This document shows, piece after piece, positions 1-46,781 of a stretch of 64,000 bases of DNA (positions are counted from its first letter, which is position 1; the number at the start of each line of letters is the position of its first letter). The translations under genes and the position numbers were made by a program. The notes beneath the pieces are model-generated. The model made no database searches, had not been told where the DNA came from, and saw only the letters and a list, made by a program, of their open reading frames with translations. Origin of the DNA: Eledone cirrhosa (Eukaryota); NCBI GenBank assembly GCA_964016885.1, contig OZ024750.1, positions 40,300,001 through 40,364,000 of the forward strand, in the 5' to 3' direction.

Positions 1-385
1 AAGTTTCCAGACGTTGGAAGTATTACGGCCGCGCTGCCCAAAAAGGGGCGTACACAGCTATTAGTCTAAGGGCTCCACTTTCACTACTGCCGACGTCTAA
101 AACCACCAGTCGACCCTCCGGGTCCAGGTGCACCTTCTGTATGACGAGGCCCAGGTGTTTTCGCAGCAGAACGACAACTCCACCCCCACCCCCCGGTTGA
201 CAGAGAGATGCGAAGATCTCAAAGTCGTCGAAGAGGGGCGCCAGTTGGTGCTCGCTGCTGATCCTGGACTCGCAAATAGCCATTACATCCATTCTATGTG
301 ACCTGAGATCGTTTAAAAGTTTGCCTTGTTTCCAAGACAGTCCCAGGCCACGTACATTCAGAAACCCAACTCTTATATCAGCCAT
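1..385 (-). pseudogene. ORF2 N-terminus (APE endonuclease) of LINE copy A, premature stop
   Basis: MADIRVG.LNVRGL...VYAP as in copy B, but codon GAA (Glu, copy B ~7944) is TAA here (23-25); homology continues past the stop to the window edge. Confidence 0.9.
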
Positions 386-406
386 GTTGGTTAAAAGAGG
401 AAGGAC

Positions 407-2149
407 CTACCTGTTCGGCTCCTGAGGAGCAGGTTGCACAATATCCATGGGCGTATTGGAGGGGTTGTTTGGTGGGGTGTTGTTCTGTGGTGGAGTGGGG
501 GTGTTTGGTGAGGTGTGGGTGGGGAAACGTTTCAAGAGGACGCGGTTATAGGGTCGAGTACATGTTTTCCCCACGTCCTCAGGAAAGTTCTCTCTTAGTT
601 TTGCATAGGTGTCCATTGGGAGTCTTATCATTTTTAAATGCGGTTTGTTGGCCGCGCTTGCAAAGAATTGCCCTTCAGTTTCCACCAAAGGGTCTTTGTG
701 TATTGTTTTTACTAGCTCTTTGTTATTTGTGTTAATGTATGTATACTGTTTTATTTGTGTTGTGTTTGTTTGTTGTTCTTGTGTGTGCTTACGTTTTGTT
801 GTATGTGTTATGTTTTGGGGTGGGGCGGATTTTGTTTGTTCTGTTTGTTTTGTTTTTGTTGGTGGTTGTGTGTTTGTTTCGTTTATGTTCGAGTGGTGCT
901 TTCTTTTTTTCCTTTTTACAGGTTGGAAGGGTTCCCCCTCTTCGTCACTAGGTGCCGTTTCCGCTGGGTCCTCGTCCGTGCTGTCGGGTAGTGGTGTATT
1001 TTGGGGTTTTGTTGTATTTGTGTGTGTTTTGGGAGTTGTTTTGGGTGGGGCCGTGTCTTGTGTTATTTTTCCCTGTTGTTTTTGTTGTTGTTGTGGTGGT
1101 GGTGGTGGAGGTGGTGGTGGTGGTGGTGGTGGCGGTGGTGGTGTGTGGGGTGTAGGCAAAAGAGCCTTTTTTTTTGTCAATTGAGGACAAGCAGCCCTTA
1201 GATGACCCCTGCTTGAACAGTAGTAACATATGGGCCTCCTACCCTCGGCTGAAATATATATAAATGTTTCTCCATCGAGGGACACCCTCTGTGGTATTCT
1301 AGCGATTCGTTCTGGTCTCATTTGGACCAGAACCTCCACGCTCAAACCGCCGAAAACGTCTGTGGTGACTTCTCCTACTGAGAGGATTCCGTCCTCGTCT
1401 TCTAAAAATCCTGTTAGTACCCAGGAAATGCATGCATTTGGCCGGATTCCGGAGACCCTTATCTTCTGCGTTCTTTTCCCTAAATATGTGGGGAAAAATG
1501 TATATATCTTGGAAACAATTGGTGCCACAGAGTATTTCCTGGCCGTCAATTGATCCTTCATTAGGACCGTTATATTCCCATAGAGTGGCCCTTTTTGTAT
1601 GAACGATATATCACTCCACACATTTTTTAGGACCAGCTCAATCTCTTTTTGGGATAATTGAGTTGGTTTCCTTGTTATGTTGGAAATTGTTCTGAAAGAT
1701 ATCGTTCTTAGCGTCGTGTCTCTTTTGATTTCTTGTGGGGAGGTGATTGTGAAGTCTCCTCCTTCTTTGAAAGTTACATACTGTTTCGCTTCCTTCATCT
1801 TTTCTCTCAGAGTTGTAATGTCCAGTTGCTTGCAGGTTTGTGTTTTCCGGACCGCCTGTGCAAAGGAGGTACCAGTAGTGGGTTCACTTTGTTTGGTGTT
1901 ATCGTTATTTTTTCCTTGGTTGGTGTTGTGACTATTGCTGTTATTGTCGTTGATGTTTTTGTCTGCGTTTATGTGACTTTCTGGGTTTTCACCCATTTCT
2001 ACAAATTTTTCTTTTAATTCCGTGTTCCATGTTTCTTTTGCAGAAGTGAGGAGGGAAGACTTAGAGCCTTGTGCTTCTAGCTTCTCTGTATCACCTTTCT
2101 TAGGGGGCGTGGCTTTCACGTTAGGATGAGATGTGAAAATTCCGTCCAT
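407..2149 (-). CDS. LINE ORF1 (gag-like, CCHC zinc knuckle)
   Basis: First ATG at 2149 (the track start at 2242 is TTG); CYYCSSRGHLRAAC = CX2CX4HX4C; poly-Pro/Gln linker; basic KRKKRK motif; directly upstream of ORF2. Confidence 0.9.
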   Translation of the reverse strand: MDGIFTSHPNVKATPPKKGDTEKLEAQGSKSSLLTSAKETWNTELKEKFVEMGENPESHINADKNINDNNSNSHNTNQGKNNDNTKQSEPTTGTSFAQAVRKTQTCKQLDITTLREKMKEAKQYVTFKEGGDFTITSPQEIKRDTTLRTISFRTISNITRKPTQLSQKEIELVLKNVWSDISFIQKGPLYGNITVLMKDQLTARKYSVAPIVSKIYTFFPTYLGKRTQKIRVSGIRPNACISWVLTGFLEDEDGILSVGEVTTDVFGGLSVEVLVQMRPERIARIPQRVSLDGETFIYISAEGRRPICYYCSSRGHLRAACPQLTKKKALLPTPHTPPPPPPPPPPPPPPPPQQQQKQQGKITQDTAPPKTTPKTHTNTTKPQNTPLPDSTDEDPAETAPSDEEGEPFQPVKRKKRKHHSNINETNTQPPTKTKQTEQTKSAPPQNITHTTKRKHTQEQQTNTTQIKQYTYINTNNKELVKTIHKDPLVETEGQFFASAANKPHLKMIRLPMDTYAKLRENFPEDVGKTCTRPYNRVLLKRFPTHTSPNTPTPPQNNTPPNNPSNTPMDIVQPAPQEPNR

Positions 2150-2360
2150 TTCTATTAGTTTGCCGTAATAAATTTTTAACTGGAAAATTCGCCCCAAAAA
2201 GGGGCGAAAATAAATAAACTCAAAGTTTGACGACCAAGGCAAGGGGTTAACGTATATTACAGTATAAAAAAATTAATCAAAACTCACTTTTTGAGTAAGT
2301 AAATCCGACTCGGTAGCCGAGCTTGTTCACACACGTCAACACACGTCTCTCGTATACGAG

Positions 2361-2587
2361 ATGTTATGTGAGATATTATGTGAGGTAAAGCCTTTACTGT
2401 GAAAATACAATAGTATATATAGAGTAATATAAATGTTATGTGAGATATTATGTGAGGTAAAGCCTTTACTGTGAAAATACAATAGTATATATAGAGTAAT
2501 GTAAATGTTATGTGAGATATTATGTGAGGTAAAGCCTTTACTGTGAAAATACAATAATATATATAGAGTAATGTAAATGTTAAAGGG
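2361..2587 (+). mobile_element. Terminus of piggyBac-type MITE hosting LINE A (about 3 x 72-bp units + TIR)
   Basis: Three 72-bp units, then GTAAATGTTAAAGGG followed by TTAA (2588-2591), the same end as the empty MITE at 61161-61371. Confidence 0.85.
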
Positions 2588-2846
2588 TTAAACAATCCTC
2601 ACCGACATTGAATTTTCTTGTCTACATCTCTTCTTTGATATACATTAAAAACACAAGTTAATATCAAACATCAATTATATTGATCTCATATCAAACATCA
2701 ATTGTATTGATTTCATGTCAAACATCAATTATATTGATTCCATGAGGACCTGTAAAGGTTATTGGAGTTACTGCTCCACCTCCAACTAAATATGAAAAAA
2801 AGATTATCTTTGCTTCTAAGGATTTGTTTAAAACTTTTATCTTCCA

Positions 2847-3252
2847 GGGTGGTGGATTGACAGAATCAGTAGAGTGTCGGACAACATGCTTTGTGGCATA
2901 TAGTTATGGCCCTTTACCTTCTGAGTTCAAATCCCGCCGAGGTTAGCATTACCTTTCATCCTTACGGGGTCAATAAATTAAAGTACCAGTAATGCACTGG
3001 GGTCAATTTAATCAACTTTCTCCTCCCCCCAAATTATTGGCCTTGTGCCTAAATCAGAAATCATTTGGATTGGCAGTATCGGTAGAGAGTCGAACACCAT
3101 GCTTTCTAGCATAGAGTTACGTCCCTTTATGGTCTGAGTTCAAATCCCGCCGAGGTTAACTTTGCCTTTCATCCTTACGGGGTCGATAAAATAAAGTACC
3201 AGTAATGTACTGGGTAATTGCTGGCCTGGTGCCAAAAGTAAAACAATTATTA
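2847..3252 (+). mobile_element. Two adjacent copies of tRNA-derived SINE family 1
   Basis: A-box-like TGGCAGTATCGG, B-box GAGTTCAAATCCC, central TTTGCCTTTCATCCTTACGGGGTCGATAAAATAAAGTACCAG (resembles the Meta/MESC SINE domain), 3' GGCCTTGTGCC..GAAACAATTATT. Confidence 0.85.
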
Positions 3253-3411
3253 GTTACATTCAAATAATTTCACTTATAAATTTCACAAGGGCGGTGTCCA
3301 GCATGGCCTCAGCTGCAACAAGTAATAGAGTAAAAGAGTAAACTGAGAAAAGGCAAGTTATATTCTATTCATTGTTCTGAGTAGGAAAAAGAAAACATGT
3401 CTATGGCTTCT

Positions 3412-3549
3412 TTAACACTTTTGCATTTAAACCAAGCCATATCCTGCCTCACCTCTTCCTGTTCAAACTGGCTGTAACTGACTGCTTATACCAACATTAA
3501 GGTATTGTTCTTAAAATAAACAATGTCACCTTAAATAAACAATGTCACA
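3412..3549 (+). mobile_element. Degenerate left part of the same piggyBac-type MITE family
   Basis: TTAACACTTTTGCATTTAAACC...CTCACCTCTTCCTGTTCAAACTGGCTGT...GGTATTGTTCTTAAAATAAA aligns by eye to 61157-61265 and 38769-38890. Confidence 0.65.
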
Positions 3550-3560
3550 GTAACCCTTTA

Positions 3561-5617
3561 CCATTTACATTACTCTATATATACTATTGTATCTCACATA
3601 CCATTTACATTACTCTATAAATACTATTGTATTTTCACAGTAAAGGCTTTACCTTACATAATATCTCACATACCATTTACATTACTCTATATATACTATT
3701 GTATTTTCACAGTAAAGTCTTTACCTCACATAATATCTCACATAACATTTACATTACTCTATATATACTATTGTATTTTCACAGTAAAGTCTTTACCTCA
3801 CATAATATCTCTCATAACATTTATATTACTCTATATATACTATTGTATTTTTACAGTAAAGGCTTTACCTCACATAATATCTCACATAACATTTATATTA
3901 TTCTATATATACTATTGTATTTTCACAGTAAAGGCTTTACCTCACATAATATCTCACATAACATTTACAATACTCTATATATACTATTGTATTTTCACAG
4001 TAAAGTCTTTACCTCACATATCTCTCATAACATTTATATTACTCTATATATACTATTGTATTTTTACAGTAAAGGCTTTACCTCACATAATATCTCACAT
4101 AACATTTATATTACTCTATATATACTATTGTATTTTTACAGTAAAGGCTTTACCTCACATAATATCTCACATAACATTTACAATACTCTATATATACTAT
4201 TGTATTTTCACAGTAAAGGCTTTACCTCACATAATATCTCACATAACATTTACAATACTCTATATATACTATTGTATTTTCACAGTAAAGTCTTTACCTC
4301 ACATAATATCTCTCATAACATTTATATTACTCTATATATACTATTGTATTTTTACAGTATAGGCTTTACCTCACATAATATCTCACATAACATTTATATT
4401 ACTCTATATATACTATTGTATTTTCACAGTAAAGGCTTTACCTCACATAATATCTCACATAACATTTACAATACTCTATATATACTATTGTATTTTCACA
4501 GTAAAGTCTTTACCTCACATAATATCTCTCATAACATTTATATTACTCTATATATACTATTGTATTTTTACAGTAAAGGCTTTACCTCACATAATATCTC
4601 ACATAACATTTATATTACTCTATATATACTATTGTATTTTTACAGTAAAGGCTTTACCTCACATAATATCTCACATAACATTTACAATACTCTATATATA
4701 CTATTGTATTTTCACAGTAAAGTCTTTACCTCACATAATATCTCTCATAACATTTATATTACTCTATATATACTATTGTATTTTTACAGTATAGGCTTTA
4801 CCTCACATAATATCTCACATAACATTTATATTACTCTATATATACTATTGTATTTTTACAGTATAGGCTTTACCTCACATAATATCTCACATAACATTTA
4901 TATTACTCTATATATACTATTGTATTTTCACAGTAAAGGCTTTACCTCACATAATATCTCACATAACATTTACAATACTCTATATATACTATTGTATTTT
5001 CACAGTAAAGGCTTTACCTTACATAATATCTCACATAACATTTACATTACTCTATATATACTATTGTATTTTTACAGTAAAGGCTTTACCTCACATAATA
5101 TCTCACATAACATTTACATTACTCTATCTATACTATTGTATTTTTACAGTAAAGGCTTTACCTTACATAATATCTCACATAACATTTACATTACTCTATA
5201 TATACTATTGTATGTTCACAGTAAAGGCTTTACCTCACATAATATCTCACATAACATTTACAATACTCTATATATACTATTATATTTTTACCGTAAAGGC
5301 TTTACCTCACATAATATCTCTCATAACATTTACATTACTCTATATATACTATTGTATTTTCACAGTAAAGGCTTTACCTCACATAATATCTCACATAACA
5401 TTTATATTACTCTATATATACTATTGTATTTTCACAGTAAAGGCTTTACCTCACATAATATCTCACATAACATTTATATTACTCTATATATACTATTGTA
5501 TTTTCACAGTAAAGGCTTTACCTCACATAATATCTCACATAACATTTATATTACTCTATATATACTATTGTATTTTCACAGTAAAGGCTTTACCTCACAT
5601 AATATCTCACATAACAT
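3561..5617 (+). repeat. 72-bp tandem repeat, about 28 copies
   Basis: Unit CATTTACATTACTCTATATATACTATTGTATTTTCACAGTAAAGGCTTTACCTCACATAATATCTCACATAA; about 2 more units at 11259-11392. Confidence 0.97.
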
Positions 5618-5828
5618 CTCGTATACGAGAGACGTGTGTTGACGTGTGTGAACAAGCTCGGCTACCGAGTCGGATTTACTTACTCAAAAAGTGAGTTTTG
5701 ATTAATTTTTTTATACTGTAATATACGTTAACCCCTTGCCTTGGTCGTCAAACTTTGAGTTTATTTATTTTCGCCCCATTTTGGGGCGAATTTTCCAGTT
5801 AAAAATTTATTACGGTAAACTAATAGAA

Positions 5829-7562
5829 ATGGACGGAATTTTCACATCTCATCCTAACGTGAAAGCCACGCCCCCTAAGAAAGGTGATACAGAGAAGCTA
5901 GAAGCACAAGGCTCTAAGTCTTCCCTCCTGACTTCTGCAAAAGAAACATGGAACACGGAATTAAAAGAAAAATTTGTAAAAATGGGTGAAAACCCAGAAA
6001 GTCACATAAACGCAGACAAAAACAACAACGACAATAACAGCAATAGTCACAACACCAACCAAGGAAAAAATAACGATAACACCAAACAAAGCGAACCCAC
6101 TACTGGTGCCTCCTTTGCACAGGCGGTCCGGAAAACACAAACCTGCAAGCAACTGGACATTACAACTCTGAGAGAAAAGATGAAGGAAGCGAAACAGTAT
6201 GTAACTTTCAAAGAAGGAGGAGACTTCACAATCACCTCCCCACAAGAAATCAAAAGAGACACGACGCTAAGAACGATATCTTTCAGAACAATTTCCAACA
6301 TAACAAGGAAACCAACTCAATTATCCCAAAAAGAGATTGAGCTGGTCCTAAAAAATGTGTGGAGTGATATATCGTTCATACAAAAAGGGCCACTCTATGG
6401 GAATATAACGGTCCTAATGAAGGATCAATTGACGGCCAGGAAATACTCTGTGGCACCAATTGTTTCCAAGCTACATACATTTTTCCCCACATATTTAGGG
6501 AAAAGAACGCAGAAGATAAGGGTCTCCGGAATCCGGCCAAATGCATGCATTTCCTGGGTACTAACAGGATTTTTAGAAGACGAGGACGGAATCCTCTCAG
6601 TAGGAGAAGTCACCACAGACGTTTTCGGCGGTTTGAGGGTGGAGGTTCTGGTCCAAATGAGACCAGAACGAATAGCTAGAATACCACAGAGGGTGTCCCT
6701 CGATGGAGAAACATTTATATATATTTCAGCCGAGGGTAGGAGGCCCATATGTTACTACTGTTCAAGCAGGGGTCATCTAAGGGCTGCTTGTCCTCAATTG
6801 ACAAAAAAAAAGGCTCTTTTGCCTACACCCCACACACCACCACCGCCACCACCACCACCACCACCACCACCACCACAACAACAACAAAAACAACAGGGAA
6901 AAATAACACAAGACACGGCCCCACCCAAAACAACTCCCAAAACACACACAAATACAACAAAACCCCAAAATACACCACTACCCGACAGCACGGACGAGGA
7001 CCCAGCGGAAACGGCACCTAGTGACGAAGAGGGGGAACCCTTCCAACCTGTAAAAAGGAAAAAAAGAAAGCACCACTCGAACATAAACGAAACAAACACA
7101 CAACCACCAACAAAAACAAAACAAACAGAACAAACAAAATCCGCCCCACCTCAAAACATAACACATACAACAAAACGTAAGCACACACAAGAACAACAAA
7201 CAAACACAACACAAATAAAACAGTATACATACATTAACACAAATAACAAAGAACTAGTAAAAACAATACACAAAGACCCTTTGGTGGAAACTGAAGGGCA
7301 ATTCTTTGCAAGCGCGGCCAACAAACCGCATTTAAAAATGATAAGACTCCCAATGGACACCTATGCAAAACTAAGAGAGAACTTTCCTGAGGACGTGGGG
7401 AAAACATGTACTCGACCCTATAACCGCGTCCTCTTGAAACGTTTCCCCACCCACACCTCACCAAACACCCCCACTCCACCACAGAACAACACCCCACCAA
7501 ACAACCCCTCCAATACGCCCATGGATATTGTGCAACCTGCTCCTCAGGAGCCGAACAGGTAG
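5829..7562 (+). CDS. LINE ORF1 (CCHC zinc knuckle)
   Basis: First ATG at 5829; CYYCSSRGHLRAAC knuckle; Pro/Thr-rich C-terminal half. Confidence 0.92.
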   Translation: MDGIFTSHPNVKATPPKKGDTEKLEAQGSKSSLLTSAKETWNTELKEKFVKMGENPESHINADKNNNDNNSNSHNTNQGKNNDNTKQSEPTTGASFAQAVRKTQTCKQLDITTLREKMKEAKQYVTFKEGGDFTITSPQEIKRDTTLRTISFRTISNITRKPTQLSQKEIELVLKNVWSDISFIQKGPLYGNITVLMKDQLTARKYSVAPIVSKLHTFFPTYLGKRTQKIRVSGIRPNACISWVLTGFLEDEDGILSVGEVTTDVFGGLRVEVLVQMRPERIARIPQRVSLDGETFIYISAEGRRPICYYCSSRGHLRAACPQLTKKKALLPTPHTPPPPPPPPPPPPPQQQQKQQGKITQDTAPPKTTPKTHTNTTKPQNTPLPDSTDEDPAETAPSDEEGEPFQPVKRKKRKHHSNINETNTQPPTKTKQTEQTKSAPPQNITHTTKRKHTQEQQTNTTQIKQYTYINTNNKELVKTIHKDPLVETEGQFFASAANKPHLKMIRLPMDTYAKLRENFPEDVGKTCTRPYNRVLLKRFPTHTSPNTPTPPQNNTPPNNPSNTPMDIVQPAPQEPNR

Positions 7563-7583
7563 GTCCTTCCTCTTTTAACCAAC

Positions 7584-10500
7584 ATGGCTGATATAAGAGT
7601 TGGGTGTCTGAATGTACGTGGCCTGGGACTGTCTTGGAAACAAGGCAAACTTTTAAACGATCTCAGGTCGCATAGAATGGATGTAATGGCTATTTGCGAG
7701 TCCAGGATCAGCAGCGAGCACCAACTGGCGCCCCTCTTCGACGACTTTGAGATCTTCGCATCTCTCTGTCAACCGGGGGGTGGGGGTGGAGTTGTCGTTC
7801 TGCTGCGAAAACACCTGGGCCTCGCCATACAGAAGGTGCACCTGGACCCGGAGGGTCGACTGGTGGTTTTAGACGTCGGCAGTAGTGAAAGTGGAGCCCT
7901 TAGACTAATAGCTGTGTACGCCCCTTTTTGGGCAGCGCGGCCGGAATACTTCCAACGTCTGGAAACTTTTCTGGGAACGTCCCGCTCCTTGCTTTTAGTA
8001 GGGGACTGGAATGGTATCCTGGATGCACGTTGGGACTATGTAGGGGCATGTGCCAATAGAAGGGGGTGTAAAAGCCTCAAAAGGTTAATCGGCCGATTTG
8101 ACCTGGCCGATAGATATCGACTAGATTTTCCGACTGTACCACTATGGACGTGGACCAATCGCAGTGGAACATCTAGGTCGTACCTAGATAGGGTCCTAGT
8201 TAGAGAGAAGGATAGGGACACATTTAGCTGTCCAAAAATGTTCATGGTTGACTATTCGGATCACAAGTTAGTGACCTGCATAGCCAACCTTGATAGAACC
8301 CATAGACAGGGACCCGGTTACTGGAAGCTGAACTTGTCCTTACCGAGAAGCAAAGCTTACAGTAAACGGATTAGCACGTTAGTTAAGCAGAGTTTGACAG
8401 GGGCAATTGTCAACAACAGGTGGTGGAGCTCTCTTAGGAGAGCAATTAGAATAGAATCGATAGGTTTTAGTCAGGAATTAGCAAGGGATAGGAACAAGAC
8501 GGAAAGGGAATTAGTAGATAGAGTAGAAGAGGCAATTAGGAGTGGCAATGTAGCCGGCGTGCTGGTATCAAGAATGGCCTTAGACCAGTTCTTTGAGGTG
8601 AAGCATGAAGGCTGCGCTGTCAGGAGTAAAATACGTGCTCTGGGTAATGAGGGAGCCAAAGCTGTGAGCTGGGCCCGAGTGACAGAGGCAAAAAGTGGGA
8701 ACAAGTCCACGATTCGGTCTTTGAAGGACCAGGATGGGCGTGTGATCCTTGAACCTGGGCAGATGTGTGCGGCCTTTCAGCGGCACTTTGCACGACTGTT
8801 CGAGAGGGGCGGCGCGCCGGGTGAGACTATGGATTTCAATCCATACCTCTACGGTCTGCCGCGCCTCTCGGACGCGGAGGCGAAGTCCTGCGAAAGGACG
8901 ATTTCAGCTGCTGAGATAGGGGCGGCGTTGAGCCAATGCGGCAAACGCAAATCCCCGGGTCTCGATGGTCTACCATACGAGCTATATGTAGCGATGCCGG
9001 ACTTGTTCTCCGATATCCTCGAAGCGGTCTACTGCAACTGGCAGCAGAACGGGAGAATTCCCAGTTCTGTGACCAAGGGCGTAGTTACGCTGGTGAGGAA
9101 GGATGAGAACAAGGGGGATGACATAAGTAACTTCAGGCCCATAACTCTGCTAAATACAGAGTTAAAGATTTTGGCCAAGGTGTTAGCGAATAGGTTGGCG
9201 CTTGTCGTTGGAAACCTGGTGGGAGAAGCGCAGACATGCGCAATCCCGTCCAGGTCCATTCACGACAATCTCCACCTTATGCGATACATCATAGAGAGGG
9301 TAGGGAATGAACCCGGCTTTGGTGGGGCCCTGATCAACTTGGATCAATCTAAAGCTTTCGATAGGGTTGACCATCGTTACCTGGATGCAGTGCTCGCGGC
9401 GGCAGGCTTCGGACCCGTTTTCAGGGGTTGGATTGCTGCGATGCACAGCAGCAACGTCTGCTCAAGGGTCAAGGTGAACGGCCACCTCTCGGAGCCGTTC
9501 CAAATCATGCGATCCATCCGACAGGGATGCCCTCTCTCCTCCCTACTGTATGTGCTGGCTCTTGAGCCACTACTGCGGAAGTTGGAGCGGTTGCAGGGCA
9601 TCCCTTTGGAACCGGGATTGCAGAAAGCGGCGTCGGCCTACGCCGATGACGTGACAGTAATGGTGTCGAAAACCTCGCAAATCGGTGAGATCGGCACCTT
9701 ACTGGAGGAATATGAAAGGTTTACAGGAGCCAAGCTGAACCGGGACAAGTCCGTCGGTTTGCAACTCGGAACATGGAGAGGCAAACCGATGCCCGCCAAC
9801 GACGTCGTCGGACGCTGGACGGAGGGCCCGGTGAAGCTGCTTGGGGTCTGGTTCGGACCAGACCTCCAGGTGGAGAAAAACTGGAACGAGGTAACGGCCA
9901 GGGTGTTTGCACTCACCCAGAAGTGGGCCCAGTGCAAACTATCCCTGAAAGGTCGAGCGGAGGTGGCGAATACTTATATAGCATCCGTCATCTACTACCG
10001 CTTGACCGTCGTGCCTTGCCCAGTGAAAAGACTCGCCAAAATGGAGTGCGCGCTGTTCCAATTTCTTTGGAACAAGCGGACCCCTTTGGTGAGGAGATCC
10101 ATCTGCTGTCAACACCCTTCGAAAGGAGGGCTGGGGATGCCGTGGCTACAGATGCGTAAACACGCATTAAGGCTACGGCACCTCCAGGTATTCCTCACCG
10201 GTCAACCGGTGTGGGCCCCGTTTGTGAGGCGAGCCTTTCCCAGACTCGTCTCACTCACCGAGCTGCAAACCTGGGTCAAGCAAAGACCGAGAAAAGTGGG
10301 CGACTGGTACATTGAATGTGCCCAGGCGCTCACGGCCCTCTGGAAAGCGGACCCGGCAATCAGTGGAGACTCCACCTCGACATTCTATAGAGGGTTGGTA
10401 CGCAGCAGGTGCGACGATGCTCTCGGAGAAGCTCTAGGCATGGAGGAAGATGAACTGGCCAGTCTGTTCGGTAGGACGTTTGGCCCTGGACCGATGGACA

Positions 10501-11021
10501 ACTTCCAAAAGTCCCTGGCTTGGCAGTGCTACCGAGGGGCTCTACCCGTTCGAGACAAGCTCCACAGGCATGGGAGCCTGGGTAGAGATCCTTTGAATAA
10601 GATCTGTCCGAGATGCGTGCATGATGACGAAAACGTTGCGCACGCATTCGTACACTGCCCAGGCATTGCTGACCTGCGTGGCTATGTGGAACGACTACTG
10701 TCGAGGGTGGGACCAATCCGGTTGACCACCGAGTCCATTGTCACGATCAAACCGCCTCCCCCTTTCAAAAACGAAGGAGAGGCGGTTTTTCTCTGTGTGA
10801 TAGCCATGGCTAAAGAAGTTGTATGGTGGACGAGGCTGAAAGGGCTGAGGTCAGACACCTTTCTCTCCGGCCAACAACTGGTCCCCTTTTTCAAATACCA
10901 TTTTAAAAGAAGGATCAGAATGGAGAGAGAGGTGCTCTACCCCAGCAAGTTTTATGAAAGGTGGGTGAAAGTAGGGAGAATGGCCAGAGTGAATGGGTCT
11001 TCTCTCTATATCAGCCTGTAG
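7584..11021 (+). CDS. LINE ORF2: APE endonuclease + reverse transcriptase + C-terminal zinc finger
   Basis: APE motifs NVRGL, GDWN, YLDR, SDH; GYWKLN; RT motifs KSPGLDG, RPITLLN, KAFDRV, QGCPLS, YADD; GGLG; CPRC..E...HAFVHC. Confidence 0.97.
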   Translation: MADIRVGCLNVRGLGLSWKQGKLLNDLRSHRMDVMAICESRISSEHQLAPLFDDFEIFASLCQPGGGGGVVVLLRKHLGLAIQKVHLDPEGRLVVLDVGSSESGALRLIAVYAPFWAARPEYFQRLETFLGTSRSLLLVGDWNGILDARWDYVGACANRRGCKSLKRLIGRFDLADRYRLDFPTVPLWTWTNRSGTSRSYLDRVLVREKDRDTFSCPKMFMVDYSDHKLVTCIANLDRTHRQGPGYWKLNLSLPRSKAYSKRISTLVKQSLTGAIVNNRWWSSLRRAIRIESIGFSQELARDRNKTERELVDRVEEAIRSGNVAGVLVSRMALDQFFEVKHEGCAVRSKIRALGNEGAKAVSWARVTEAKSGNKSTIRSLKDQDGRVILEPGQMCAAFQRHFARLFERGGAPGETMDFNPYLYGLPRLSDAEAKSCERTISAAEIGAALSQCGKRKSPGLDGLPYELYVAMPDLFSDILEAVYCNWQQNGRIPSSVTKGVVTLVRKDENKGDDISNFRPITLLNTELKILAKVLANRLALVVGNLVGEAQTCAIPSRSIHDNLHLMRYIIERVGNEPGFGGALINLDQSKAFDRVDHRYLDAVLAAAGFGPVFRGWIAAMHSSNVCSRVKVNGHLSEPFQIMRSIRQGCPLSSLLYVLALEPLLRKLERLQGIPLEPGLQKAASAYADDVTVMVSKTSQIGEIGTLLEEYERFTGAKLNRDKSVGLQLGTWRGKPMPANDVVGRWTEGPVKLLGVWFGPDLQVEKNWNEVTARVFALTQKWAQCKLSLKGRAEVANTYIASVIYYRLTVVPCPVKRLAKMECALFQFLWNKRTPLVRRSICCQHPSKGGLGMPWLQMRKHALRLRHLQVFLTGQPVWAPFVRRAFPRLVSLTELQTWVKQRPRKVGDWYIECAQALTALWKADPAISGDSTSTFYRGLVRSRCDDALGEALGMEEDELASLFGRTFGPGPMDNFQKSLAWQCYRGALPVRDKLHRHGSLGRDPLNKICPRCVHDDENVAHAFVHCPGIADLRGYVERLLSRVGPIRLTTESIVTIKPPPPFKNEGEAVFLCVIAMAKEVVWWTRLKGLRSDTFLSGQQLVPFFKYHFKRRIRMEREVLYPSKFYERWVKVGRMARVNGSSLYISL

Positions 11022-11652
11022 GTGAAAGAAGAGGAAAAAGAGGAGACGAGGGAAGCACCTACTCTTTGTGCTCCTGAGGAGAAGGGCTGCACATTTTTTC
11101 CGGGGTGTGTGCGACCCATGTTAATGCCCCCTCCCTATTGAGGACTTCGTTTGTTGTTGTTATTTCATTGTTATATTTTTGTACTCGTTAATTATATGTA
11201 AACTTCCCCCCTTGTATCTGTCCCTACCTTTTGTGCCCTAGTGGCAAATAAAGAAACCACTCTATATATACTATTGTATTTTCACAGTAAAGGCTTTACC
11301 TCACATAATATCTCACATAACATTTACATTACTCTATATATACTATTGTATTGTCACAGTAAAGGCTTTACCTCACATAATATCTCATATAATAATGAAT
11401 CTATGACATTTTGATATTATTTATTTTGAGGACAATACCTTAACATTAGTATGAGCAACTGGTTACAGCTGGTTTGAACAGAAAGAGGTGAGAGAGTTCT
11501 GGCTGGATACAACTGGTTTAAATGCTAAAGGGTTTAAACTATTGCTAATATTTAATTCTACCCAACTTTTGAATAAATATGTAGGACACAAAAATTCCAC
11601 CAAGTATTACAGAATATACATAAAATATATATTATATATTATACATTATACA

Positions 11653-13421: not shown

Positions 13422-15929
13422 GCACTAACACTTTACAGAGTATACTGGGTGTATTTTATCATAGTATCCCTGCACTAACACTTTACAGAGTATACTGGGT
13501 GTATTTTATCATAGTATCCCTGCACTAACACTTTACAGAGTATACTGGATGTATTTTATCATAGTATCCCTGCACTAACACTTTACAGAGTATACTGGAT
13601 GTATTTTATCATAGTATCCCTGCACTAACACTTTACAGAGTATACTGGGTGTATTTTATCATAGTACTCCTGCACTAACACTTTACAGAGTATACTGGGT
13701 GTATTTTATCATAGTACTCCTGCACTAACACTTTACAGAGTATACTGGGTGTATTTTATCATAGTACTCCTGCACTAACACTTTACAGAGTATACTGGGT
13801 GTATTTTATCATAGTATCCCTGCACTAACACTTTACAGAGTATACTGGATGTATTTTATCATAGTACTCCTGCACTAACACTTTACAGAGTATACTGGGT
13901 GTATTTTATCATAGTATCCCTGCACTAACACTTTACAGAGTATACTGGGTATATTTTATCATAGTACTCCTACACTAACACTTTACAGAGTATACTGGGT
14001 GTATTTTATCATGGCACCCCTGCACTAACACTTTACAGAGTATACTGGGTGTATTTTATCATGGCACCCCTGCACTAACACTTTACAGAGCATACTGGGT
14101 GTATTTTATCATAGTACTCCTGCACTAACACTTTACAGAGTATACTGGGTGTATTTTATCATAGTATCCCTGCACTAACACTTTACAGAGTATACTGGGT
14201 GTATTTTATCATAGTACTCCTGCACTAACACTTTACAGAGTATACTGGGTGTATTTTATCATAGTATCCCTGCACTAACACTTTACAGAGTATACTGGGT
14301 GTATTTTATCATAGTACTCCTGCACTAACACTTTACAGAGTATACTGGGTGTATTTTATCATAGTATCCCTGCACTAACACTTTACAGAGTATACTGGGT
14401 GTATTTTATCATAGTATCCCTGCACTAACACTTTACAGAGTATACTGGGTGTATTTTATCATGGCACCCCTGCACTAACACTTTACAGAGTATACTGGGT
14501 GTATGTTATCATAGTACTCCTGCACTAACACTTTACAGAGTATACTGGGTGTATTTTATCATAGTATCCCTGCACTAACACTTTACAGAGTATACTGGGT
14601 GTATTTTATCATAGTACTCCTGCACTAACACTTTACAGAGTATACTGGGTGTATTTTATCATAGTACTCCTGCACTAACACTTTACAGAGTATACTGGGT
14701 GTATTTTATCATGGCACACCTGCACTAACACTTTACAGAGTATACTGGGTGTATTTTATCATAGTACTCCTGCACTAACACTTTACAGAGTATACTGGGT
14801 GTATTTTATCATAGTACTCCTGCACTAACACTTTACAGAGTATACTGGGTGTATTTTATCATAGTATCCCTGCACTAACACTTTACAGAGTATACTGGGT
14901 GTATTTTATCATAGTACTCCTGCACTAACACTTTACAGAGTATACTGGGTGTATTTTATCATAGTACTCCTGCACTAACACTTTCCAGAGAATACTGGGT
15001 GTATTTTATCATGGCACCCCTGCACTAACACTTTACAGAGTATACTGGGTGTATTTTATCATGGCACCCCTGCACTAACACTTTACAGAGTATACTGGGT
15101 GTATTTTATCATAGTACTCCTGCACTAACACTTTACAGAGTATACTGGGTGTATTTTATCATAGTACTCCTGCACTAACACTTTACAGAGTATACTGGGT
15201 GTATTTTATCATAGTATCCCTGCACTAACACTTTACAGAGTATACTGGATGTATTTTATCATAGTACTCCTGCACTAACACTTTACAGAGTATACTGGGT
15301 GTATTTTATCATAGTATCCCTGCACTAACACTTTACAGAGTATACTGGGTGTATTTTATCATAGTACTCCTGCACTAACACTTTACAGAGTATACTGGTG
15401 TATTTTATCATGGCACCCCTGCACTAACACTTTACAGAGTATACTGGGTGTATTTTATCATAGTACTCCTGCACTAACACTTTACAGAGTATACTGGGTG
15501 TATTTTATCATGGCACCCCTGCACTAACACTTTACAGAGTATACTGGGTGTATTTTATCATAGGACCTCTGCACTAACACTTTACAGAGTATACTGGGTG
15601 TATTTTATCATAGTACTCCTGCACTAACACTTTACAGAGTATACTGGGTGTATTTTATCATAGGACCTCTGCACTAACACTTTACAGTGTAGACTGGGTG
15701 TATTTTATCATAGCACTCCTGCACTAACACTTTACAGAGTATACTGGGTGTATTTTATCATAGGACCTCTGCACTAACACTTTACAGAGTATACTGGGTG
15801 TATTTTATCATAGTACTCCTGCACTAACACTTTACAGAGTATACTGGATGTATTTTATCATAGGATCCCTGCACTAACACTTTACAGAGTATACTGGGTG
15901 TATTTTATCATAGGACCTCTGCACTAACA
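13422..15929. repeat. 50-bp minisatellite, about 50 copies
   Basis: Unit TGCACTAACACTTTACAGAGTATACTGGGTGTATTTTATCAT + a variable 8-mer (AGTACTCC, AGTATCCC, GGCACCCC, AGGACCTC). Confidence 0.97.
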
Positions 15930-16691: not shown

Positions 16692-19600
16692 TAGTTTTGC
16701 GAGGTTTTTTATATGAAATCGTGTGTCGAAACAGATATTGTTATATTTGGGGAGGGTCATATTTGCGTAATATTGCCAGAATTAATAACAGAACACACTC
16801 ACTGTTTGGTTGGTTTTCGCTTCTCGCTGTCTTTTATATATATATATATATCTGCGATCTAACTTACTCGGTCCTCAATGTTGCCATTGACTGACCGGCG
16901 GTCAAAAATAATACAGATACAATATAGACAAACACATATATATATAGTTTACATAATTTACATAAATCTTTCGTTGCACATCTGCAACATCGTCAGTGGT
17001 GTTATATTCATTGTTCCTCCTGTTGTGTTGTATGTCTACGCCATTTTTTTGTTCAGTCTGTCTATATATTTATTTATTTGCTTGTTTGTTTATCTTATTT
17101 TATTTTGTCTTCTTTGCGCATGCGTTTGCGTGTGTGTATAGTGTTATGTGTGATGTGTGACTAGTGTGTATAGTGTTGTGTCTGCTGGGTGACTAGTGTG
17201 TGTTTATGTGCTTGTGTATGTATTTATTTATCTTATTTTATTTTATTTTATTTACTTATTTATTTATACTTCTCTTAGGTCAGTGTTGTTTGTTTGGGTG
17301 TTGTTGTTGTTCCACTCATTCTTTCTGTTTAGCTTTGGTCTTCTAATTTCTATTTCACTGGCCTCTCTGATTTGCCTATCTGCTGGGTCATTCCTATGTT
17401 TAGATATTATTCTAATTTCTATGTTGTCTATGTTACCGTCATGTTGTTGCCTAGCATGTTCGTATAGTACTGACCCATTTTTTCGTCCTTTTAGTTCCCC
17501 CCAGTGTTGGTCTATCCTTTCACCTATGCTACGAGCTGTCTCACCTATGTATGTTGTTGTCGTGTTTCTGCAAGTACCCTCTGTACATCTTATGCTATAG
17601 ACTACGTTTCTAGTTTTACAGTTTATCCGGGGGTTCACCTTACATATGATACATTTCCTATTGGTACAGTGGGTTTTCTTAAAAGGGTAGGTTTTGCTGA
17701 TCAGGGATTTTATGGTGGTTCCTGGCTTTTCTACCACCTTTATTTTTAAGTGGGTCTTTCTCAGGGCCTTTCTACACTGGTTAGCTAATTTCCCTCCAGG
17801 GGTGGCGTCCACAAACATGACACTCTGATATCTCTGGTTGTCGTACCATGATGTGGCCTTCCCTATCTTATGTCTAGCCCTATCTAAGCTATTCCATGAT
17901 TTGCTCCTGTATAGTGGGCAAATTCCTTTCATGTCCAGTTCTATGAGGGTCTTATACTTTTCCATGGCTCCTTCGTATACTCTGACTCTGTCTCTTTGGT
18001 TGTAGCCAGAGAACTGCATGCGGTTGATGAAGTGTTGGATGTGTCCTTCCATTTCTGTTGGGTCGCACATGCTGGACACATTCTTCATCACTCGTACCAA
18101 ATCTGCGATCAGAATATTAAACTTAGCACTACTGGACATTGCTGAGTTTTTGAGTATCAGGTATTTGGAGGCCATGGGTTTAGCATAGTGTGAGTGGAGA
18201 ATTTGGGCTCTCTCGTCTATAGTGTTAATCCAGAGTTCTGTGTCTAATACAGGTAGTCTATTGTTAGGGTGTTTGGAAGGGAAGTCTATAGTTACAGTTA
18301 TACTCTGGTGTATGGAATTAGCTATCTGCTGGATGCTTTCCATCGTGCTACGTTCTAAATCAAACTTGTTAGTGCTCTCTAGTGGGGGTGTTCTTATAAC
18401 TATATTGATATCGTCTACATAACGAGAGTACATGATGAGGTCTATGGAGCTTTCATTAAGGAGATCTTTAAGTCTCCTTTCCCACCATACCATGAAAAGG
18501 TTGGCAACATCACCAGCTATGCTGACGCCGATGGCTGCTCCCTCATTTTGGGTGTAGATTTTCTCATTGAACTTAAATATGTGGCCCTTTAGGGTAGTTT
18601 TGATACTAGCCCCTATTGCATGTGCGACCATTTTTCTTACCTGATCAGTGTTTTGGGGGGTCCGTATAGCTTTGGTCCACCCAATCCACCTTCCTATGGG
18701 AGTCTTTTTAGCCATTGAGGTTATGGTGGGGGGTCTACCTCTTATAGGTCTACTAGGGCAGAAACATCTAAGGTCATGGCAGTCTAGGTAGTCAGTGTCG
18801 TAGGTAAGTCTAAGTAGGAGGCCCAGTTCGTCTGTGTCGACGTCGCAGAACTCCACCTCACTCTCAATGATCATCTCCACACATCTTTTCACAGCAAAAT
18901 CAATGTTAATGGATGGGTACAGTGACACCACATCCATGCTGCCTATTATGCAGTTGGATAGGCTCCTGTTTTTGTTGCACTCACTGATTCTGCTGAGGAG
19001 GTCCTCTGTACTTTCACATACATCTGGGGACATCTTGATTATGGGGCGTATAACCATTGAGAGGAAGTAGGAGATCCTGTAGTTGCTAGCTATATTAGCT
19101 CCGCATACGGGTCTTGTTGGTGGTCCTGTTGTCGGGTCGTCGACTGTCTTGTGGTCTTTGCGGAGCCCATACAAGGGTGGTATGCCATTGTTAGACGCCT
19201 GGAAGTTGTTGGCAGTGCGTCTGCTTGGCTTTAGGATGTCAGTCCACATCATCATGTGAGCGTTGAGGATTTTTTCTCTCCCATCGTGTGTTAGTTGTGC
19301 AACTTCGCTCGTGTTGGTGATGTGGGGTTGCATTGCCTCGATGTAGTTCGGCATGCTATCTATTGACATCCTACCGGACTTATCTGTGGGTAGACACACT
19401 ACCTCACCATCCCTTGTGCGCTGCTTGAGGCTAACCAAGCCTTCTACAGGTTTTATCCCAAGTTGTTGGGCCTCTGGTCTGCTCTGTCTCATAGTGTACC
19501 TGTCTACTACTTGTCTAATCTTATTTCTAGCTATGGTGAACTGTGCCTCCGTCTCGTCATCTATTTGCTGTGGTATGCAAACTCTTTTATTAAAGGGTAA

Positions 19601-21430
19601 CCTCGTAGGATAGATATTACCCATCTTATATGTTTTGTCAGCTGGGTTGAAAAATAGTTTCTCTAAGGGGTTGTCGTTATTTCTCTCGTCATAGTTGTGT
19701 GTGTTGCTATTATTGTTATCATGGTGGTTGTTGTTGTTTCTATCATTAGCATTAATATTATTATTGTTATGATTGCTAGATGTATTGTTGTTTACTTCAC
19801 CGTTATTGTTGTTGTTGTTACTGCTATTTCTACCATTGTGGTTGTTACTATTATTATGTTTCTTGTTTTTGTTGATGTTGCTACATGTACTATTTCCATT
19901 ATTACCACTGTGGTTATTGTTGTTGTTGTTGTTCGTATTGTTACCGTTATTACTACTGTGGTCACTGTTGCTGTGTCTGTGGTTAACGTTTCTATTATTA
20001 TTATTATTGTGGTTGTTGTTGTTCTGTCTATCGCTAGTATTATTACCATTATCACTATTTCTCACTTTCCTGCCATTGTTATGGTTATGGCTGTTATTTC
20101 TATACCCAGAGTTATTGTTTATATTACTACTACCGTTATTATTGTTGTTGTTGTTTACCTTTGCATTCCAACGTATTTTTGTGAAACACTTTTCCAGCTC
20201 CGTTTTGCATTCCATAGGGTTAATCTTTTTGTAGATGGCAAATTTTGGTGGTAACTTTAGGATTTGTTGTTCTTGTTCACTGATTAAAGTGTTCCCATAG
20301 ATATTTACTGTGTGGTCATTGGTAAATTCTTCCGGTAGTTTTACATCACTCATACGGATGTTGTCGATGTTATCTGGGTATTTTTGAGAATATTCGATTT
20401 TCCTTTCTTGTAGTTTTTTCTTATTCATCCATTCTAATTTCTTCTTGAAATGCCTACAGCATTCGTTTTGAGTATATTTCGTTTCGCGTCGGATGACGCT
20501 CATGAAGTCATCTCTCTCGTTTGCTGTGATGAGATTTCGGATTTCCTTACCGTTGATGCGTTTTTGTCTGTAGAGTGCGTTGACTTTTGTGTATGTTGTT
20601 CTTTTCATATTAACTGTTATTGTGTGTTTTAGCCGTTCAGCTTGTGTTTTGTTCAATAATAAATTATTTACTTGTTTTGATATGTTTGTTGTGTGTGTTT
20701 TGGAGGAAACACAGTGTTTTAAGAAGCGGATTTGTTCTGTTGTTATTGTAGTTTTTATATAACAGAAAACAGTGTCTTTCAATAACCTTTCAGCTTGGCA
20801 CAAGCTAATGCCATAGCGGCGATGAATTAGTTTTGCGAGGTTTTTTATATGAAATCGTGTGTCGAAACAGATATTGTTATATTTGGGGAGGGTCATATTT
20901 GCGTAATATTGCCAGAATTAATAACAGAACACACTCACTGTTTGGTTGGTTTTCGCTTCTCGCTGTCTTTTATATATATATATCTGCGATCTAACTTACT
21001 CGGTCCTCAATGTTGCCATTGACTGACCGGCGGTCAAAAATAATACAGATACAATATAGACAAACACATATATATATAGTTTACATAATTTACATAAATC
21101 TTTCGTTGCACATCTGCAACATCGTCAGTGGTGTTATATTCATTGTTCCTCCTGTTGTGTTGTATGTCTACGCCATTTTTTTGTTCAGTCTGTCTATATA
21201 TTTATTTATTTATTTGCTTGTTTGTTTATCTTATTTTATTTTGTCTTCTTTGCGCATGCGTTTGCGCGTGTGTATAGTGTTATGTGTGATGTGTGACTAG
21301 TGTGAATAGTGTTGTGTCTGCTGGGTGACTAGTGTGTGTTTATGTGCTTGTGTATGTATTTATTTATCTTATTTTATTTTATTTTATTTACTTATTTATT
21401 TATACTTCTCTTAGGTCAGTGTTGTTTGTT
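16692..21430 (-). mobile_element. Penelope-like retroelement (Naiad-like) with direct pseudo-LTRs
   Basis: About 600-bp direct repeats 16692-17294 and 20828-21430 overlapping the ORF end and start (partial tandem); 3' end abuts (TA)n. Confidence 0.92.
17264..20896 (-). CDS. PLE polyprotein: reverse transcriptase + GIY-YIG endonuclease
   Basis: LKLPPKFA, PTDKSGR, YGLRKDHK, TRPV, SMDVVSLYPSI, QNEGAAIG, RYVDD, LPVLD; linker CX4CX2C..C; VVYSIRC...YIGETARSIGERIDQH; Asn-rich insert. Confidence 0.95.
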   Translation of the reverse strand: MTLPKYNNICFDTRFHIKNLAKLIHRRYGISLCQAERLLKDTVFCYIKTTITTEQIRFLKHCVSSKTHTTNISKQVNNLLLNKTQAERLKHTITVNMKRTTYTKVNALYRQKRINGKEIRNLITANERDDFMSVIRRETKYTQNECCRHFKKKLEWMNKKKLQERKIEYSQKYPDNIDNIRMSDVKLPEEFTNDHTVNIYGNTLISEQEQQILKLPPKFAIYKKINPMECKTELEKCFTKIRWNAKVNNNNNNNGSSNINNNSGYRNNSHNHNNGRKVRNSDNGNNTSDRQNNNNHNNNNNRNVNHRHSNSDHSSNNGNNTNNNNNNNHSGNNGNSTCSNINKNKKHNNSNNHNGRNSSNNNNNNGEVNNNTSSNHNNNNINANDRNNNNHHDNNNSNTHNYDERNNDNPLEKLFFNPADKTYKMGNIYPTRLPFNKRVCIPQQIDDETEAQFTIARNKIRQVVDRYTMRQSRPEAQQLGIKPVEGLVSLKQRTRDGEVVCLPTDKSGRMSIDSMPNYIEAMQPHITNTSEVAQLTHDGREKILNAHMMMWTDILKPSRRTANNFQASNNGIPPLYGLRKDHKTVDDPTTGPPTRPVCGANIASNYRISYFLSMVIRPIIKMSPDVCESTEDLLSRISECNKNRSLSNCIIGSMDVVSLYPSINIDFAVKRCVEMIIESEVEFCDVDTDELGLLLRLTYDTDYLDCHDLRCFCPSRPIRGRPPTITSMAKKTPIGRWIGWTKAIRTPQNTDQVRKMVAHAIGASIKTTLKGHIFKFNEKIYTQNEGAAIGVSIAGDVANLFMVWWERRLKDLLNESSIDLIMYSRYVDDINIVIRTPPLESTNKFDLERSTMESIQQIANSIHQSITVTIDFPSKHPNNRLPVLDTELWINTIDERAQILHSHYAKPMASKYLILKNSAMSSSAKFNILIADLVRVMKNVSSMCDPTEMEGHIQHFINRMQFSGYNQRDRVRVYEGAMEKYKTLIELDMKGICPLYRSKSWNSLDRARHKIGKATSWYDNQRYQSVMFVDATPGGKLANQCRKALRKTHLKIKVVEKPGTTIKSLISKTYPFKKTHCTNRKCIICKVNPRINCKTRNVVYSIRCTEGTCRNTTTTYIGETARSIGERIDQHWGELKGRKNGSVLYEHARQQHDGNIDNIEIRIISKHRNDPADRQIREASEIEIRRPKLNRKNEWNNNNTQTNNTDLREV

Positions 21431-29227: not shown

Positions 29228-29365
29228 TTAACCCTTTCAGTACCATATTTCTAATGAAAGACACTGTCTATGTCTTTAATCCTTTCATTACCATATTTCT
29301 AACGAAAGACACTGTCTATGTTTTAACCCCTTCATTACCATAGTTCTAATGAAAGACGCTGTCTA
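29228..29365 (+). repeat. Triplicated ~47-bp TTAA-CCCTTTC terminus of a second piggyBac-like MITE
   Basis: TTAACCCTTTCAGTACCATATTTCTAATGAAAGACACTGTCTATG occurs three times with variants. Confidence 0.6.
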
Positions 29366-30282
29366 TTATTTTCAAATAGTTTTGAAAATAATCAAGAATT
29401 TGGAGAGATTTGGTAAAACGACAAATTTCTTCGTTGTTTATTTAGTGTCTGGTTCCTGTCAGGAAGCACCATTTTTAACGCCTAATAACAAATGGTTTCG
29501 TCTTGAAACATTTTGAACATGTGAAACATGTGACATGATTTTTGACCAATCAGAAGACAACTTTTAGCTTCAAAGCTGTAATAAATATAACTCCTTTTTT
29601 TATCTTATTTAGTATGGAACAGAATATACCGTATTTAACGGCCTATAAAACACTCTATTTTAAAAAAATGTCCCAGAAAATTACCCTGTGTCTTATAAAG
29701 TCAGGGGCCAGTTTGGGTTACTAGCAAGTGGAGTTCTAGTACTGCAGTGGCTCTGCAAATGTAAACAAGGTGGTGATCGCTTCTACACCAACAATGGTAA
29801 CTCTTGTCCAAAGAAAAAAAATACAATTTTAATAAATTTTATGAATGAAATAAATTTATTTTCACTTTCTTTTGTCACTGACTAGTGGAGTTCAAGTGCT
29901 GCAGTGGCCTTTAAATTAAACCGCAAACATATCCGTTTATATAAATCATCATCATCACCATCATCATAATCATCATCATCGTTTCAACGTCCCTTTTAAC
30001 GTCCACTTTCCCAGTACAGTGTACACTGGGTGCGTTTTTCTTGTAGGTCACCTCACCAACACTAGGAAGGCTATCATGTCCTTGACACAACTAAAGTGCC
30101 CTCCCAGCCATTGGTTTTAGCAAGTTTTCTATCACCAACCACTTTACAGCGTGTACGAGGTGGGTTTATCGTGTAAATCACAAAACACGGGAAACTGTCA
30201 TGTCCTTGACACGACTGAAAAGTCTTCTTACCCTTTGTTTGGCAAGGACTCTACGGCTAGATGCCCTTCCCATCACCAACCA

Positions 30283-33581: not shown

Positions 33582-34680
33582 TATCTCTTTCTCTTAATTT
33601 CGAGTATATTTTTTTGACCAGCCACTTCCTGGTGGCAAGGTTGTAAAAGAAAAGAAATTGTCATCCCTTGAATCGCAAGAATGTTTTGCAAATTTTGAAG
33701 GTGCCAGCTATCGCAGCCATTTGTAGACTATGAATTAGGGAGCTGCGCTCTTTGTCCGCAAATCCAAGTTCAGTTATACATTGGTCCAAGCGGGTTGGTA
33801 TATAACCCGTAGCTCCAATAATGATGGGTATGAAGCTAAAGGTGTATCTTGGATACTGGATTTGTAAACTCCTCATCAATGGTCCATAGATGTCCTCCTT
33901 CTGTATTTTTCTGACAACGTTTACATCAAGTGGGCAGCTGATCTCCACAACAGAACACGTTTTCAATGTGTGGTCCCAAACAACAATATCAGGCAGGTTG
34001 TGTTTTAATTTGGTGGCAGTTTTTATTTTCAGGTTCCACCAGTATTCCTTAGTGCGATCTGTCTCAATATATTCTTCCTCGTTTGTTGTTAATTTTGTTT
34101 TCCGAAGTGCGTTCCAGATGGTTCTAGCTATCCCATCGTGTCTCATGGGGAGGTAGTAGCGAGATAACATTCTTTCGCAGCTGGCAACAATGTGGCTTAC
34201 ATCTTCGATCTTTGTTTTACATAGCCTACATTTATTGTCAGCTGATGGCCCTCCTCTTTTGTGCAGCAGATATTTGGTAGGGAGTTCTTGTTTCTGTATT
34301 GCATAGTGATATGCCTCAAGGTGTGATGTCATAAACTTGTCGGAACTCCATGCCAGGTTTTTGAGTGGTTTATCCCCTCTATGGTCTGTGTTTTACATCT
34401 CGAGTATCCATGCACAACTTTTTCTGTAAATTGGTCAATTTTTTCATTTTGTTTGAACATTGAATAGGATCTTCCGATTTCTCTGGGTGAGAGATTTATA
34501 TGATGCTTTATTCCATATCTCTCCTCCAGATCAGTCGCTATCCTAATGATATTTTTTTCTTCATGCTCATAAACCTGGGCAAGATGGTTGCCAACCTTTT
34601 TCCTCTGTTGAAGATGTTGCTTCAGTGTTACTATCCGGGTCTCATATGATGTTAATATGGATTTTAGACCCTGGCCACCT
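33582..34680 (-). pseudogene. 5'-truncated R4/Dong-like retrotransposon (CCHC + RLE), ORF remnant 33661-34332
   Basis: AIQKQELPT, CRLCKTKIEDVSHIVASC, Y..RHD, PDIVVWD..VEISCP, IPIIIGATG; flanked by (TATG)n-rich DNA. Confidence 0.85.
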
Positions 34681-46481: not shown

Positions 46482-46524
<43 letters not shown>

Positions 46525-46781
46525 TTTCATTTATTGGCCACAAGGGCCGACATATAGGGGACAACACAATAGACAGGGACAGTGGGGGTTTACATAGAGA
46601 TCGAGTAAGTATAAATAACAAAAAAACAAAAACAAAATAACAATAAAAATACAACAATGAAAGTTCCCCAATAAGAGGGATCACCACCCAGGGTTGACTC
46701 AAGCACCCCACCAGTCCTGAGCCACCCGACGCTCCTAGGGCACCCGGGAAGGGCACCCCTCTCCTTCTCGAATTCACCAGC

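Follow-up and report, generated by a model that had tools for sequence, protein, structure and literature searches.

We wanted to understand how a full-length LINE came to lie inside the internal tandem array of a small DNA transposon (MITE), and whether this arrangement arises because the LINE chooses its target or because both elements travel together. The first-pass annotation of the window, that is, the whole stretch of 64,000 nucleotides analysed here, had named the locus a composite transposon, likened it to Xenopus Tx1, and left both mechanisms standing side by side: a LINE that targets the MITE repeat, or a piggyBac transposase that moves the composite as a unit. In the Xenopus system Tx1L is inserted within a repeat internal to its host transposon, the target duplication is short, and the composites are named Tx1C/Tx2C. 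According to passages of PMC4494074, PMC1950540 and PMC6719617, which cite Christensen et al. 2000, Tx1 (Tx1L) of Xenopus laevis inserts in Tx1D, a non-autonomous piggyBac element. Two copies of the LINE, A and B, stand at the left end of the window.

5618–11258, forward strand: complete LINE copy B (5,641 bp), with a structured 5' UTR of 211 nt and a 3' UTR of 237 nt ending 6 nt past AATAAA, no poly(A)
5829–7562, forward strand: ORF1 of LINE B, 577 aa, with a single CCHC knuckle (weak Pfam match, E 0.007) and, as a lead, a ZCCHC3-like RNA-binding region
7584–11021, forward strand: ORF2 of LINE B, 1145 aa, intact, with APE endonuclease, RT and C-terminal zf-RVT
1–2360, reverse strand: 5' portion of LINE copy A, with the 5' UTR, ORF1 (2149–407) and the start of an ORF2 that has a stop at codon 121; it continues off the window edge

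LINE B has the organization of the L1 group of non-LTR elements, with two ORFs, the second of which carries an N-terminal APE domain, an RT and a C-terminal Cys/His finger. For ORF2, PF03372 and PF00078 exceeded the Pfam cut-off, PF13966 gave a weak zf-RVT match below it (E 5e-5), and the endonuclease could be aligned to human L1-EN structures. In the Tx1 clade, ORF1 bears RNA-binding domains and a CCHC knuckle. The zf-CCHC match of our ORF1 falls under the Pfam cut-off, and its atlas neighbours are zf-CCHC and ZCCHC3-type proteins at 0.90–0.92. No named Tx1 reference appeared among the protein matches listed (91, 104 and the best 120 of 990), and the nearest named protein to the RT of LINE B, among the best 120 of 990 matches, came from Argonauta hians (67%). 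LINE B is an L1/Tx1-type element, and its assignment to the Tx1 clade is plausible. The hairpin loop of the Tx1L endonuclease has 11 residues, according to a passage of PMC1950540. Aligned to 2v0r, in which that loop is grafted, LINE B showed two gaps in its own loop, and it showed none against human L1-EN; since its loop thus matches the human L1 length and is two residues shorter than that of Tx1L, LINE B is not Xenopus Tx1L itself. Outside the window, protein scans for the LINE returned distant loci only (4 of 37 candidate stretches at 24–38% and 3 of 21 at 28–30%), and the LINE 3'-end pattern had 0 matches in metagenome contigs. Part of the LINE was contained in 8 of 12 listed sequencing runs (shares 0.22–0.68; five coded organisms, 4 studies), and the four runs with at least half of it belong to one organism and one study; this search was not taken as evidence.

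To describe the host element, we used two empty members of the same MITE family, E1 and E2, together with the pieces that surround the LINEs.

38774–39194, forward strand: empty MITE E1, TTAA on both sides, unit order Y-X-X-Y
61161–61371, forward strand: empty MITE E2, TTAA on both sides, one Y-type unit
2361–2587, forward strand: short end of MITE A, three X-type 72-bp units; the terminal inverted repeat (TIR) ends at 2587, with TTAA at 2588–2591
3554–5617, reverse strand: short end and array of MITE B; TIR at 3554–3567 preceded by GTAA, about 28 X-type units, of which 2 are deleted, showing 14 different substitution variants
11259–11395, reverse strand: X-type units on the 3' side of LINE B, 1.9 units; 7 nt of the unit are absent between both junctions
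11396–11532, reverse strand: long arm of MITE B with its TIR (11519–11532), TTTAA next
3416–3549, forward strand: orphan long arm belonging to this MITE family, older and diverged (70–75% to the other arms), preceded by TTAA; a 16-bp direct duplication adjoins the end of B

The empties give the layout of the family: flanking TTAA, 14-bp TIRs starting CCC, a unique long arm of about 135 bp and at least one 72-bp unit, the last unit running straight into the TIR at the short end. The TIRs start with CCCTTT and the two ends of B match at 13 of 14 positions; the TTAA target duplication flanks E1 and E2 at either end and is also present at the visible end of A. Elements of the piggyBac type have short TIRs starting CCC or CCY. 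TTAA is also the piggyBac specificity (PMC3064801), and TTAA plus CCC ends would fit a piggyBac-type MITE. A further TTAA MITE family with repeats inside it may be represented at 29228–29366, where an element starts with TTAA-CCCTTT and contains a 48-bp unit repeated 2.9 times. The 72-bp units make up 4.4% of the window, have 25% GC and fall into two types. The X type comprises every unit of A and B as well as the middle pair of E1, and units of this type have mismatches at 0–3 of 54 nt if one deleted unit is disregarded; the first and last units of E1 and the sole unit of E2 are Y-type, with 7–12 mismatches in 54 nt. Within E1 itself (38909–39194), the middle two units differ from those of A and B at 0–1 position and the outer two at 7–8 of 54. 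Neither prokaryote genomes nor viral contigs contained a match to the pattern of the unit (0 in each).

LINE B lies within such an array. With its MITE shell it spans 7,979 bp, from CCCTTTA at 3554 to TAAAGGG ending at 11532, and Tandem Repeats Finder counted 28.2 units on its 5' side (3590–5617), 1.9 on its 3' side (11259–11392) and 3.1 beside LINE A (2361–2582). A and B stand head-to-head, their MITE ends separated by 966 bp, and their homology stops 3 bases past the short MITE end, after which the DNA is unrelated. Over about 2,350 bp, 17 substitutions and one 9-bp indel distinguish the two LINEs (99.3% identical, 0.7% different). The first-pass annotation had described the units on both sides of B, the terminal bounds, 3 units at A against about 28 at B, unrelated DNA beyond the TIR of A, and a 5' junction and orientation common to both copies, and all of this was recovered. 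It had also seen the composite twice, which holds for the 5' half, the 3' junction of A being outside the window; both of its empty members exist, E2 with the limits it gave and E1 starting at 38774 instead of 38773.

We then looked at the junctions to define the target. The 12-mer that opens the LINE was found only at 2349–2360 and 5618–5629, each time after CACATAACAT of the unit. Read in the orientation of the LINE, the unit runs ...CACATAACAT TTACATT ACTCT..., and LINE B starts after CACATAACAT and ends before ACTCT, so that the unit has either lost 7 nt or had 65 nt duplicated. Identical 65-mers flank the LINE at B, but since the 65-mer occurs 7 times in the array of B and is also present next to copy A, these two outcomes look alike. 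If both insertions were independent and random, A and B would share unit phase and orientation by chance at about 3e-4. At the 3' end, B and a sibling LINE described below, C, both join at ATT^A. We infer a first nick at AGAGT^AAT on the opposite strand.

The explanation that we prefer, with a confidence only a little above even, is that the LINE enters pre-existing arrays site-specifically and that the composite is a by-product. The address of this young L1/Tx1-type LINE would be one site of the 72-bp unit. Its APE endonuclease would cut at AGAGT^AAT in the opposite strand, and the 3' end released there would prime reverse transcription starting at the last base of the RNA. The LINE 5' end would then be attached either 7 nt upstream or, indistinguishably in a tandem array, 65 nt downstream. 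The MITE shells would have been there before, providing a many-copy, harmless landing site. The second copy would have arisen either by a separate retrotransposition event in the array next door or by recombination that copied it from one facing array to the other, and in either case each shell would retain its own ends. Recombination between facing arrays would explain the adjacency of the copies, their identical junctions and their own shell ends, all three.

It is seen directly that A and B share their 5' junction and that the 3' end of B joins 7 nt on, with no poly(A). For targeting count this shared junction, the lesions in the shell of B set against a young LINE, the greater age of the MITE family, sibling C and the known target choice of Tx1-clade elements. 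Against it count the number of copies, two with one of them half visible, and their kind, none being 5'-truncated in the window by tblastn, in which the LINE matched A, B and C only. Independent insertion is ordinarily proved by truncated copies (PMC4494074, section 14), and the same paper counts a Tx1 family as target-specific when one repeat borders over 20% of its copies, 5'-truncated ones included. Here 2 of the 2 visible copies lie in the 72-bp unit, but they are adjacent, and since they are head-to-head only 966 bp apart, A and B are not securely independent events. The O. vulgaris annotation lists 421 insertions in 13 families of recently active L1-Tx1 elements in Octopus vulgaris (PMC13282606, Table 1); in such a low-copy family, two separate insertions within 3 kb of each other would be uncommon, should the numbers here resemble those. 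The dN/dS between A and B was 0.44 (9 N, 6 S), a value for which a neutral DNA copy gives P 0.10–0.23, so that retrotransposition and neutral copying are not separated by it. Targeting is the most likely reading, and it rests on two neighbouring copies that cannot prove it.

The alternative is that a transposase carried the LINE about. In this case, the LINE entered one MITE, a piggyBac-type transposase moved the whole 6–8 kb unit locally, and the arrays later changed length. The adjacency of A and B, the end of their homology at the TIR and the perfect TIR plus TTAA at the visible end of A would all fit this, as would the unit types, both LINE-bearing shells being X-type only and both empties having Y-type terminal units. 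For piggyBac, mild local hopping has been reported, although the same paper notes its low tendency for local hops (PMC3064801). The ends of B count against it. They read GTAA|CCC on the left and GGG|TTTAA on the right, the TTAA being shifted by one base, so that neither end of B has TTAA directly next to it, whereas the end of A, E1 and E2 have clean TTAA. The short TIR of B carries a T>G change, also seen in two adjacent units, and its last unit has lost 23 nt; A is intact at both places. At the divergence of the LINEs, at least two lesions in the 8 target-duplication bases of B have a P of 4e-4 to 1.4e-3. Non-TTAA targets make up 3.3% of piggyBac insertions (PMC3064801), and one of these lesions could be an original non-TTAA target. 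Perfect TTAA at both ends of a LINE-bearing element was not found in B, and A shows one end only. Since A does not have the derived terminal changes of B, it was not copied from the present state of B. In addition, no autonomous piggyBac element or transposase-like frame was apparent by eye among the 39 ORFs of at least 150 aa in the window. We therefore consider local transposition of the composite unlikely.

The age of the shells points the same way. Because of its lesioned ends, the orphan older arm and the 16-bp duplication, the shell of B appears older than its LINE. Likewise the MITE family is older than the LINE, because the three long arms in view are 85–88% alike, a comparison of B with other copies and not with A, whose long arm lies beyond the window, against a difference of 0.7% between the LINEs. 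As judged from these sequences, MITE B looks like an old shell and not like a recently cut-and-pasted composite. For the orphan arm at 3416–3549, no matching continuation was found on the other side of B. The flank just past the short end of B (within 3416–3553) resembles the unit's own TTACTGTGA.

Scars of this kind can also be read in favour of plain chance. A T^AA-nicking LINE with no specificity would have hit a long AT-rich array once, and repair, by array conversion or inverted duplication, would have copied it next door. This fits two adjacent, inverted copies, the repair-like 16-bp duplication and orphan older arm adjoining the short end of B, the dN/dS, which is compatible with neutrality, and the share and low GC of the units in the window. 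The Y-X-X-Y order of E1 also speaks for it by showing unit sequence moving between loci; indeed, X units differ at 0–3 positions across three loci though the visible arms differ by 13%, and such near-identical units in divergent shells mean that unit sequence does move. A plain segmental duplication, however, would not be expected to end at the TIR, and the sibling LINE lying in (ATT)n, like the missing poly(A), agrees with a lineage that chooses its targets. A single chance hit copied by repair thus seems to us improbable.

The movement of units raises a further scenario, to which we give little credence, in which LINE and MITE feed each other. The LINE would target the unit, bring or copy X units, write new sites into old shells and lengthen arrays; its loss between flanking units would leave Y-X-X-Y shells like E1, and a transposase may carry LINE-bearing shells. 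In such a cycle, X units might be brought as a 5' passenger of the LINE or, in a homing-like way, through endonuclease-started recombination between arrays. The 0–3 mismatches of X units in divergent shells fit it, as do two adjacent LINEs in shells with different ends, but ordinary gene conversion between arrays explains this pattern too.

Returning to site-specific entry, the window holds a third LINE that bears on how such a target might be chosen.

46523–52349, reverse strand: sibling LINE C, intact, between (ATT)6 and (ATT)13; its 5' boundary is inferred

Another ATT tract near 52580 offers an alternative 5' boundary for C. Compared with B, LINE C has 70% aa identity in ORF2 and 30% in ORF1, a 5' UTR of 208 nt (211 in B) and an AATAAA..GAAA(T/C)C end resembling that of B, again with no poly(A). 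By eye, the endonuclease hairpin loops of B and C differ at only two positions. The position of C in (ATT)n, with the T^AAT nick core of B, suggests a target-choosing lineage whose address may have changed, and C is a candidate for an (ATT)n-targeting family, represented by a single copy. The (ATT)n at its 3' side could be a tail instead.

Some features of the untranslated regions were also noted. The 5' UTRs of B (5618–5828) and C (52349–52142) fold better than shuffled sequences (z -2.9 and -3.6); though different in sequence, each has a GC hairpin with a U-rich loop about 35–45 nt upstream of the ATG. LINE B begins with a 12-bp palindrome. An Rfam search of its 5' UTR gave no convincing match, and a ribozyme at this end was rejected, the only candidate being a twister match on the opposite strand (E 2.2, 16.8 bits vs 39.9). 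A self search found a 43-nt inverted similarity between the end of ORF1 (7529–7570) and the 3' UTR (11051–11093) of B (79%, E 0.002), absent from C, which is possibly a long-range RNA pairing or chance near a shared palindrome. Elsewhere in the window, 13 copies of a 117-bp unit (99%) at 37037–38558 keep an open frame and resemble by eye the C-terminus of the ORF at 33661–34392, which we take to be the end of a restriction-like endonuclease LINE. On the reverse strand, a 1,217-aa open frame at 17264–20917 has an Asn-rich insert and, by eye, a GIY-YIG-like end; it had no Pfam match at 1e-3 and is presumably Penelope-like. A 50-bp satellite (50 copies, 95%) occupies 13422–15929.

How do these results compare with known systems? 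The title of composite transposon given by the first-pass annotation was not supported, and the statement that A and B share the same MITE end is true only roughly, given the terminal changes of B. Between its two mechanisms, target choice came out as the better supported, by the degraded ends of B against a young LINE and by a sibling in (ATT)n with the same nick core; transport of the composite by a transposase is the less supported of the two. The annotation had not taken up the head-to-head placement of A and B. The Xenopus analogy is apt: in both cases a non-LTR element of the APE-RT kind occupies one fixed position in a piggyBac-type DNA transposon that is non-autonomous and has TTAA. 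Unlike Tx1L/Tx1D, the host here is octopod-like, the target of LINE B shows a 7-nt truncation or a 65-nt duplication, and the specificity is a presumed one. The novelty of the locus is lower than that analogy implies, because similar targeting of DNA transposons by Tx1-type LINEs is known in crocodilians as well.

In passages of PMC4494074 and PMC4640811, many Tx1-clade elements are described as choosing targets, which include piggyBac, Mariner and Harbinger transposons and microsatellites. Crocodilian Tx1-Mar prefers Mariner-N4_AMi and Tx1-9_AMi a Harbinger, other families preferring LTR elements or microsatellites, as described in PMC4494074. As is proposed for our LINE, the Tx1-type elements Tx1-Mar and Tx1-9_AMi have a preferred site within a non-autonomous DNA transposon that is abundant and older than they are; unlike it, they use other host superfamilies in vertebrates, with no tandem-unit target described, and have dozens to hundreds of copies versus 2 here. 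In sections 14–15 of that paper, hitch-hiking versus targeting was settled with 5'-truncated copies. Kibi, Koshi and the crocodilian microsatellite-targeting Tx1 families use (TC)n, (TTC)n, (TTCC)n and (TTTC)n (a passage of PMC4494074). They offer a model for sibling C, which also lies in a simple repeat, but C is in (ATT)n and was observed in a single copy. U2 genes are the target of Keno, in lancelet and cnidarians too (same paper). No cephalopod Tx1 LINE with a described target was found among the openly accessible papers searched or in passages of the O. vulgaris annotation (PMC13282606). Figure 3 and the supplements of PMC4494074 give further Tx1 targets, satellites among them, and may include invertebrate LINEs aimed at transposons. 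Passages of PMC5753468 and PMC10294476 gave no target information. The 3,666,023 bp reported for 474 piggyBac insertions in the table of PMC13282606 (7.7 kb each, composite-sized) was rejected as a misprint, as it exceeds the TIR total in that table and subtraction gives 366,023.

Altogether, the arrangement at this locus is genuine and clean. Its kind is known, its lineage and its target are new, and the case for it rests on two adjacent copies. If the specificity were true genome-wide, it would be an independent, probably cephalopod repeat of Xenopus Tx1L/Tx1D, with an intact young element, and targeting versus hitch-hiking in Tx1-type composites would become countable in a long-read assembly. 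LINE B and its 70%-identical sibling C in (ATT)n would then make a natural pair for studying how APE endonucleases change address.
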